From: Escherichia coli
Lineage (GTDB): Bacteria > Pseudomonadota > Gammaproteobacteria > Enterobacterales > Enterobacteriaceae
Strand: one strand, 5' to 3'
DNA: 64,000 bases
Assembly: GCF_017348835.2 (NCBI RefSeq)
Contig: NZ_CP071375.1
Positions 44,476 to 45,232 of this stretch are shown one piece after another. A model generated the notes under the pieces. That model ran no database searches. It was not told where the DNA came from and worked only from the letters and a program-made list of their open reading frames with translations. Made by a program: the position numbers and the translations under genes. Positions within the stretch are counted from its first letter, which is position 1. Each line of letters starts with the position of its first letter.

Positions 44476-44766
44476 TTATTTATTCGCTGATTTTTCTGCT
44501 CGTTGCCTGCGAAGCTCTTTCGGATCGGCAATGAGAGGGCGATAAATCTCCACCCGATCGCCATCATGCACACTATCGCTTAGTTTTGCCGGACGGCTGT
44601 AAATGCCGACTTTGTTTTTAGTTAAATCGATATCGGTACGCAATTCCAGCAAGCCACTGGCGCGAATAGCTTCTTCAACCGTCGCGCCCTCCTGCAGCGT
44701 CACGCGCTGCAGGTACTGCTTCTCAGGTAGCGCATAAGCCACCTCAACGGCAATTTTACCTGGCAC
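44476..44766 (-). CDS. ratB: UPF0125 protein RatB
   Basis: ORF 44476..44850; likely GTG start at 44766 giving 96 aa ([16 protein letters not shown]...); overlaps the ratA 3' end by 11 bp. Confidence 0.75.
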
Positions 44767-45232
44767 TGTAAACCTCTTTCGCACGAACCGTAAAAGCCTG
44801 GACCATATTAGACGCCAGCTCTTTAAACACGCGACCAAAGGCGAGCTCAATCAACTTATTGGTAAACTCAAAGTCGAGATGAAACTCGATACGACACGCC
44901 TCCTGGCTCAGCGGCGTAAACTTCCATCCACCAATCAATTTCTTGAACGGCCCATCCACCAGATTCATAAGAATACTTTGGTTACTGGTCAACTGGTTGC
45001 GGGTAGTAAACGTTTTGCTGATCCCAGCCTTAGAGACATCTACCGCCGCAGTCATCTGCCCAGGAGTAGACTCCAGAATCCGACTTCCGGTACAACCCGG
45101 CAAAAACTGAGGATAAGACTGAACGTCATTCACTAACTGATACATTTGCTCCGCGCTGTAGGGTACCAGTGCGGTCCGGCTAATCTGAGGCATAACAATT
45201 TCCATCAACAAAAATCCAACAAATAATATCAT
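44756..45232 (-). CDS. ratA: Ribosome association toxin RatA (SRPBCC/polyketide-cyclase fold)
   Basis: 158-aa ORF recognised as RatA (YfjG); divergent from smpB. Confidence 0.85.

Follow-up and report, generated by a model that had tools for sequence, protein, structure and literature searches.

The yfjF gene of Escherichia coli (ratB, pasI) almost certainly begins, to judge from its sequence and those of its relatives, at a GTG codon that lies inside the 3' end of the preceding gene, ratA (pasT), so that the two reading frames overlap by 11 nucleotides. The overlapping start is kept at the homologous position in all 73 species loci in which the two genes are linked. The genes were analysed in a 64,000-nt stretch of E. 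coli DNA (contig NZ_CP071375.1), which is called the window throughout and to which all coordinates refer. RefSeq and papers of 2011-2026 already contain the GTG start and the 11-nt overlap, as well as the doubts about RatB; comparison of the gene junction across species gives independent support for both starts, GTG 44766 of yfjF and ATG 45193 of ratA, and also supports selected co-expression of a Coq10-like with an RnfH-like protein. The coding features are as follows.

44476-44766, minus strand: yfjF (ratB/pasI) coding sequence, GTG start, 96 amino acids, RnfH-family β-grasp product (translation, Pfam, NCBIfam, PDB, RefSeq)
44756-44766, minus strand: ratA/yfjF overlap, 11 nt, GTGCCAGGTAA, from the yfjF start codon to the ratA stop codon
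44772-44776, minus strand: Shine-Dalgarno sequence GAGGT of yfjF, 5 nt ahead of the GTG, duplex ΔG -6.5 kcal/mol
44756-45193, minus strand: ratA (pasT) coding sequence as really expressed, from ATG 45193 (Met14 of the K-12 annotation), 145 amino acids, START/SRPBCC Coq10-like product
45194-45232, minus strand: additional 5' segment (Met1-Val13) given to ratA by the K-12 annotation, which in vivo is non-coding and belongs to the promoter/5' UTR

Start codons of yfjF and ratA

Translation of 44476-44766 on the minus strand gives 96 codons and a stop, with a product ending in ...AEKSANK. The first codon, GTG, occupies 44766-44764 and the ratA stop codon, TAA, 44758-44756, both on the minus strand, which bears out the 11-bp overlap read by the first-pass annotation; the identical 291-nt coding sequence and 11-nt overlap are annotated in RefSeq/PGAP and in the K-12 record. 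The same annotation had remarked that ratB lacks an in-frame ATG, and none occurs across the whole open frame, 124 codons at 44476-44850, back to the upstream stop. The start-like codons listed for this frame are only TTG 44850, TTG 44838, GTG 44784 and GTG 44766. At GTG 44766 the GAGGT sequence forms a duplex with the 3' end of 16S rRNA at -6.5 kcal/mol and a spacer of 5 nt, compared with -1.9 to -3.2 kcal/mol at the other three codons; a value of -6 is attained at just 5% of random positions in the window. The GAGGT is itself encoded by the Glu-Val codons of the conserved C-terminal K-E-V-Y of RatA. A 36-nt stretch comprising the junction is found unchanged in 4,293 E. coli genomes, and pasI was cloned with its 'original SC (GTG)' by Fino et al. 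(PMC7424257).

Protein comparisons point to the same codon. The Pfam RnfH domain begins at residue 5 of YfjF, and in 64 diverse members of the family the N-terminus lies 2-9 residues ahead of a conserved I-x-V-E-V strand; a long upstream extension and a downstream start are both unlikely, because neither fits the boundaries of the RnfH domain. Initiation elsewhere could be at TTG 44850, TTG 44838 or GTG 44784 (products of 124, 120 and 102 amino acids) or at a downstream GTG, codon 9; in its favour, the frame of E. coli is open back to 44850. However, the upstream codons have the weak Shine-Dalgarno sequences given above and are missing in many species (19 of the 73 ratA-linked loci described below have no upstream in-frame candidate at all), and the downstream GTG would remove the first conserved β-strand. 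All four codons were thus rejected on Shine-Dalgarno strength, non-conservation and domain boundaries, and we regard initiation at any of them as extremely improbable. The earlier assignment of the start to GTG 44766, with a 96-residue product, therefore stands, with Shine-Dalgarno strength, comparative data and RefSeq in agreement. The supplements of TRAINSPOTTER, INRI-seq, Ribo-RET and DeepRibo, which were searched for evidence on the initiation site, hold no yfjF/ratB entry.

The real start of ratA is ATG 45193; position 45232 is a published mis-annotation, and the comparative data agree. The first-pass annotation had followed the K-12 model of 158 amino acids starting at 45232, which has to be given up in the face of the PGAP annotation (438 nt, start ATG 45193, protein MPQISR...), of the NCBIfam RatA model, which begins at residue 14 of the K-12-style protein, and of published experiments. 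In these, the native promoter yields the Met14 product only, toxicity comes from the long form, which arises as an artefact of overexpression, and transcription starts downstream of Met1 (PMC11988751). An ATG aligns with Met14 in 72 of 74 loci, an in-frame stop lies within the 39 nt upstream of it in 42 of those 72, and the reading frame of 45194-45232 is not conserved in other species. The 158-residue model and the name 'toxin' are still spread in databases and should not be used at face value. The supplement of INRI-seq, an in vitro method, records an internal ratA start at an ATG 27 nt into the annotated frame (Met10; window 45203-45205, minus strand); this ATG is found in some Enterobacteriaceae loci only, and in vivo work favours Met14.

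Conservation of the gene junction

The comparative set consists of 80 species loci found with the family alignment, in each of which ratA and rnfH were located. In 73 of these, ratA lies immediately upstream of rnfH on the same strand; among the 80, it was not found upstream of rnfH in 7 Pasteurellaceae, and the one Pasteurellaceae locus examined (L056) has a free-standing rnfH with an ATG at the same N-terminal position. Every one of the 73 ratA-linked loci has a start codon that overlaps the 3' end of ratA at the homologous position, by 4-17 nt. The most frequent combinations are GTG with an 8-nt overlap (31 loci), GTG with 11 nt (22), ATG with 8 nt (9) and ATG with 4 nt (5); rarer ones are ATG with 11 nt (3) and GTG with 17 nt, TTG with 8 nt and GTG with 4 nt (one each). 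The junction reads GAGGTttacaGTGnnnnnTAA/TGA in Enterobacteriaceae, GAGGTttacaGTGnnTGA in Yersinia, Erwinia, Pantoea, Serratia and Photorhabdus, ATGnnTGA in Alteromonadales and relatives, and ATGA in Betaproteobacteria.

All 74 loci (window included) have the same T and G in the start codon. Where the overlap is 8 or 11 nt, this T falls at a third codon position of ratA, and nearby third positions of ratA outside the Shine-Dalgarno sequence are only 31-47% conserved. The residues at the tail of RatA vary (Ser/Arg, Ala/Val), yet the nucleotides are always xGT Gxx. The overlap is thus conserved beyond what constraint on the upstream protein explains. A duplex of -6 kcal/mol or better is present at the homologous start in 86% of the 73 loci, and the nucleotides corresponding to 44772-44776 are 74-84% conserved. 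In two loci (L049 and L073) the N-terminus of RatB has acquired low-complexity insertions of 30-50 residues, and the overlapping start codon is still used.

Because the overlap is kept in 73 of 73 loci and the start codon never varies in its T, a wobble position of ratA, the comparison shows selection on the overlapping arrangement and on co-expression of ratA and yfjF. The assignment of the yfjF start to GTG 44766 draws its strength from the same two observations, an overlapping start retained across species and a start-codon T held invariant at a ratA wobble position.

Transcription and translation of the operon

Two further features would delimit the transcript.

45223-45231, minus strand: probable extended -10 (TGaTATTAT) in the promoter of ratA-yfjF, with a TG that is also the TG of the mis-annotated ATG
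44440-44468, both strands: bidirectional intrinsic terminator hairpin, A6-GGTGCTC-loop-GAGCACC-T6, common to the convergent yfjF and bamE

According to the published mapping, the -10 box of the ratA promoter lies inside the annotated reading frame, the 5' end of the mRNA is downstream of Met1, and an M1S mutant has a reduced promoter score (PMC11988751). The probable -10 element of the ratA-yfjF operon is TGaTATTAT at 45231-45223, the exact hexamer being our assignment; the motif aaATGnTATTAT is kept in Enterobacterales even where the frame to the real ratA start is closed. The hairpin lies 8 nt past the yfjF stop codon and has a folding energy of -20.7 kcal/mol (z -5.9), which none of 200 shuffled sequences equalled. 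A scan for consensus σ70 promoters gave no minus-strand candidate within ratA, and it also missed the real ratA promoter; likewise, a scan for terminators between the genes gave only a weak 5-bp stem (44889-44874) and missed the real terminator, so that the scanning has a low sensitivity.

On the plus strand, promoter-like sites facing smpB (TTTCCA-17-AATAAT and TCAACA-16-TATCAT, window 45199-45232) coincide with the AT-rich bases of the ratA -10 element, which suggests that ratA-yfjF and smpB may have divergent promoters that overlap face to face.

The proposed course of expression is that a single mRNA would arise from an extended -10 σ70 promoter overlapping the mis-annotated ATG at 45232 and end at the bidirectional hairpin. 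RatA would be translated from ATG 45193, and yfjF from GTG 44766 by means of the GAGGT within the ...K-E-V-Y codons of RatA. Ribosomes finishing ratA would terminate 8 nt beyond the yfjF start and beside its Shine-Dalgarno sequence, and because they stop there, re-initiation and co-production of both proteins would be favoured. For RatA and RatB, some 30 and 50 copies per cell have been reported.

The first-pass annotation had taken the overlap to imply translational coupling. The part of this claim that holds is that the overlap fits coupled expression: the yfjF start and the ratA stop overlap on the same strand, with the Shine-Dalgarno sequence inside ratA, as in other overlapping cistrons. 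A strict dependence of one translation on the other goes too far, since a strong, unstructured Shine-Dalgarno sequence allows independent initiation; dependence of yfjF translation on that of ratA is plausible on the arrangement of the junction. Coupled overlapping pairs in other operons (ATGA with a 4-nt overlap, or longer out-of-frame overlaps) share with ratA-yfjF the common strand, the start inside the upstream 3' end and the embedded Shine-Dalgarno sequence. They differ in that their commonest overlaps are 4 or 1 nt, against 11 nt here and 8 nt in most other Enterobacterales, and in that the downstream start here is GTG; coupling of ratA-yfjF itself is a prediction. The junction RNA is less structured than shuffled controls (z +1.07). 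Coupling by unmasking of the yfjF Shine-Dalgarno sequence was therefore dropped, and coupling, if any, would take the form of termination and re-initiation next to that sequence.

Deletion of ratA lowers RatB, with a log2 fold change of -6.75 (bioRxiv 10.64898/2026.05.04.722385). This drop would fit a yfjF gene that lacks a strong promoter, and it may simply reflect loss of the promoter -10 box, which is inside the deleted region; because the box is removed too, transcriptional and translational dependence cannot be told apart by this deletion.

The overlap could also be a matter of compact gene packing, with yfjF translated by Shine-Dalgarno-led de novo initiation independently of ratA translation. 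The strength and optimal spacing of the yfjF Shine-Dalgarno sequence would permit this, the lack of structure at the junction means that no unmasking by an upstream ribosome is needed, and free-standing rnfH genes exist in Pasteurellaceae. Against it, the overlap survives in all 73 loci from beta- to gammaproteobacteria and persists through changes of its length (4, 8, 11 or 17 nt), of the start codon and of the RatB N-terminus, which exceeds what packing predicts, and GTG is a weak start for de novo initiation. We consider packing possible but doubtful, and prefer co-expression favoured by re-initiation at the overlap.

Encoded proteins and genomic setting

RatA matches the Pfam family PF03364 over the whole profile (positions 1-126 of 126; 132.9 bits, E 1e-38), the NCBIfam model NF007999 (304.5 bits, cut-off 258) and PDB structure 1T17 (1.8e-19). 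The last of these is Caulobacter CC1736, which, together with mitochondrial Coq10, belongs to the same START/SRPBCC fold family; RatA has been reported as a functional homologue. Coq10 and most of its bacterial homologues are solitary, whereas an overlapping rnfH-like partner is seen only with the beta- and gammaproteobacterial genes. RatA has been shown to be homologous to Coq10 and to support aerobic respiration (PMC7424257), a role in shuttling ubiquinone has been put forward (bioRxiv 10.64898/2026.05.04.722385), and its binding of ubiquinone has been reported (PMC7424257; bioRxiv 10.64898/2026.05.04.722385). RatA would act as a Coq10-like START-domain ubiquinone chaperone or shuttle.

YfjF is an RnfH-family β-grasp protein. 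It matches PF03658 (Ub-RnfH) over positions 1-83 of 83 (120.7 bits, E 3.2e-35, cut-off 23.7), the NF002490 equivalog (154.1 bits, cut-off 75), and PDB structures 2HJ1 (6.4e-28), the H. influenzae UPF0125 protein, and 8AHX chain H (1.5e-13), the RnfH of A. vinelandii; both of these proteins are, like YfjF, small cofactor-less PF03658 domains. RnfH of A. vinelandii is a cytoplasmic subunit of Rnf1, confirmed by structure, which contacts RnfB and RnfC, whereas YfjF is encoded beside ratA, far from rsxABCDGE. The RatB proteins linked to ratA, YfjF included, have a near-invariant basic C-terminal motif, RPLxADPKExRRxRA, and the alignment with the A. vinelandii protein ends just before it. Many RatB homologues outside Enterobacterales (L052-L082) carry, in addition, a C-terminal extension AEKAKxEGRA(D/N)KVTGGR, which the E. 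coli RatB does not have. YfjF would most likely be an accessory or adaptor of membrane redox machinery of the RsxB/Rnf type, the identity of the partner being suggested by homology.

The ratA-yfjF pair is not a toxin-antitoxin module, and the label 'toxin' is obsolete, as papers of 2020-2026 make clear. The type II reading, in which RatA blocks 70S formation and RatB is the antitoxin, survives in the name of NF007999 in NCBIfam/PGAP ('type II toxin-antitoxin system RatA family toxin'); full-length RatA/PasT is toxic when overexpressed, and co-expression of pasI relieved this toxicity in one study (PMC11988751; bioRxiv 10.64898/2026.05.04.722385). Toxicity, however, is seen only with the 13-residue N-terminal extension Met1-Val13, an artefact; the native transcript lacks Met1 and gives only the 145-residue form from Met14, which is non-toxic (PMC11988751; bioRxiv 10.64898/2026.05.04.722385). 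The ribosome-association toxin, which had been named in the first reading of this DNA, has thus been revised experimentally as an extension artefact (PMC7424257; PMC11988751; bioRxiv 10.64898/2026.05.04.722385). That reading's caution about RatB was well placed, as the ratB deletion is viable, the original study found no RatA-RatB complex and no neutralisation on plates (PMC11988751; bioRxiv 10.64898/2026.05.04.722385), and pasT alone complements all pasTI phenotypes (PMC7424257). Type II modules are expected to have the antitoxin gene first and a patchy or mobile distribution; here the putative toxin gene comes first, and the locus is core and syntenic (5,425 of 5,426 E. coli genomes; adjacent genes in 73 of 80 species). 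An AlphaFold2 model of a RatA-(G4S)5-RatB fusion, computed with a naturally paired alignment of 36 species, folded both domains well (pLDDT 87) and gave no confident docking, since the pTM of 0.54 is close to the fraction of the length taken up by the larger domain (0.55; 145 of 266 residues); judged on pTM alone, this is a weak negative. Altogether we hold the toxin-antitoxin reading to be very improbable.

A different possibility is that YfjF is a functional RnfH subunit of the Rsx (Rnf-type) complex, its linkage to ratA being historical and not functional. Homology to the RnfH of the A. vinelandii Rnf1 cryo-EM structure speaks for it, as do the K-12 RefSeq name, 'putative component of the Rsx system', the binding of an RnfB homologue by a RatB-like protein of Legionella (bacterial two-hybrid), and the complementation of the pasTI phenotypes without pasI (PMC7424257). 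Contact with RnfB/RnfC-type subunits is known only for this Legionella protein and for the RnfH of A. vinelandii. The K-12 operon rsxABCDGE-nth, however, contains no rnfH, yfjF being elsewhere, so that the link of YfjF to Rsx is by homology alone. That the tight linkage to ratA has preserved the overlap in two classes of proteobacteria points to a function in common, and the conserved C-terminal motif reaches beyond the A. vinelandii alignment. An Rsx subunit with a purely historical tie to ratA is, in our estimate, unlikely, and we prefer an accessory protein made together with RatA. More specifically, the strict overlap might be kept because RatB is needed alongside RatA, as a transient adaptor that hands over or regulates the quinone shuttle at Rnf/Rsx-type complexes; we offer this as a speculation of low probability. 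If true, it would establish a first functional RatA-RatB-RsxB link. Tagged RatB was undetectable in a 2026 preprint (bioRxiv 10.64898/2026.05.04.722385).

Three fusion proteins were considered, and none is informative on the partnership with RatA. P0219 (428 aa) is a single fusion of RnfH to an APH/choline-kinase-like phosphotransferase domain. P0001 (163 aa) joins a partial RatA to a RatB 99% identical to that of E. coli, and P0123 joins MscL to a RatB (RnfH) that is 93% identical; the latter two were rejected as Rosetta-stone fusions, since with 93-99% RatB identity they look like frameshift or assembly chimeras.

The locus is very likely a core-genome housekeeping bicistronic operon of E. 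coli, ratA-yfjF (ratAB/pasTI). A 1.1-kb query around it finds a match of at least 95% identity in 5,425 of the 5,426 complete E. coli genomes, and one of 100% in strain PE164. The local gene order is recN(+), bamE(+), yfjF(-), ratA(-), smpB(+), ssrA(+), ypjA/ehaD(-), which places the operon between smpB/ssrA and bamE. It is the same locus as ratA (b2619) and yfjF/ratB (b2618) of K-12 and as pasTI of the uropathogenic strain CFT073: K-12 has the same length of yfjF, the same 11-nt overlap and the same neighbours (recN-bamE and smpB-ssrA), and its RatA is 99.3% identical to that of the window over 145 aa compared. It differs in that ratA starts at Met14 in the PGAP annotation of the window and still at Met1 in the K-12 record, and in that the CP4-57 prophage, which follows ssrA in K-12, is absent from the strain of the window.

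In the window, the ypjA/ehaD autotransporter gene comes directly after ssrA, the gene of the tmRNA with tag ANDENYALAA (46061-51299 for the two). The matching strain has a partial recombinase and a 39-aa 'ATPase' fragment at approximately window 51750-52270 by coordinate mapping. The tRNA gene at 54310-54385 (minus strand) is called tRNA-Met with anticodon CAT by ARAGORN and tRNA-Ile in RefSeq, and is probably of the ileY type, read as Ile after lysidine modification. Other landmarks of the window are a complete rRNA operon with tRNA-Glu (15282-20294, minus strand), the RyfD small RNA (23292-23430) and a pheL-type Phe leader (28176-28301).
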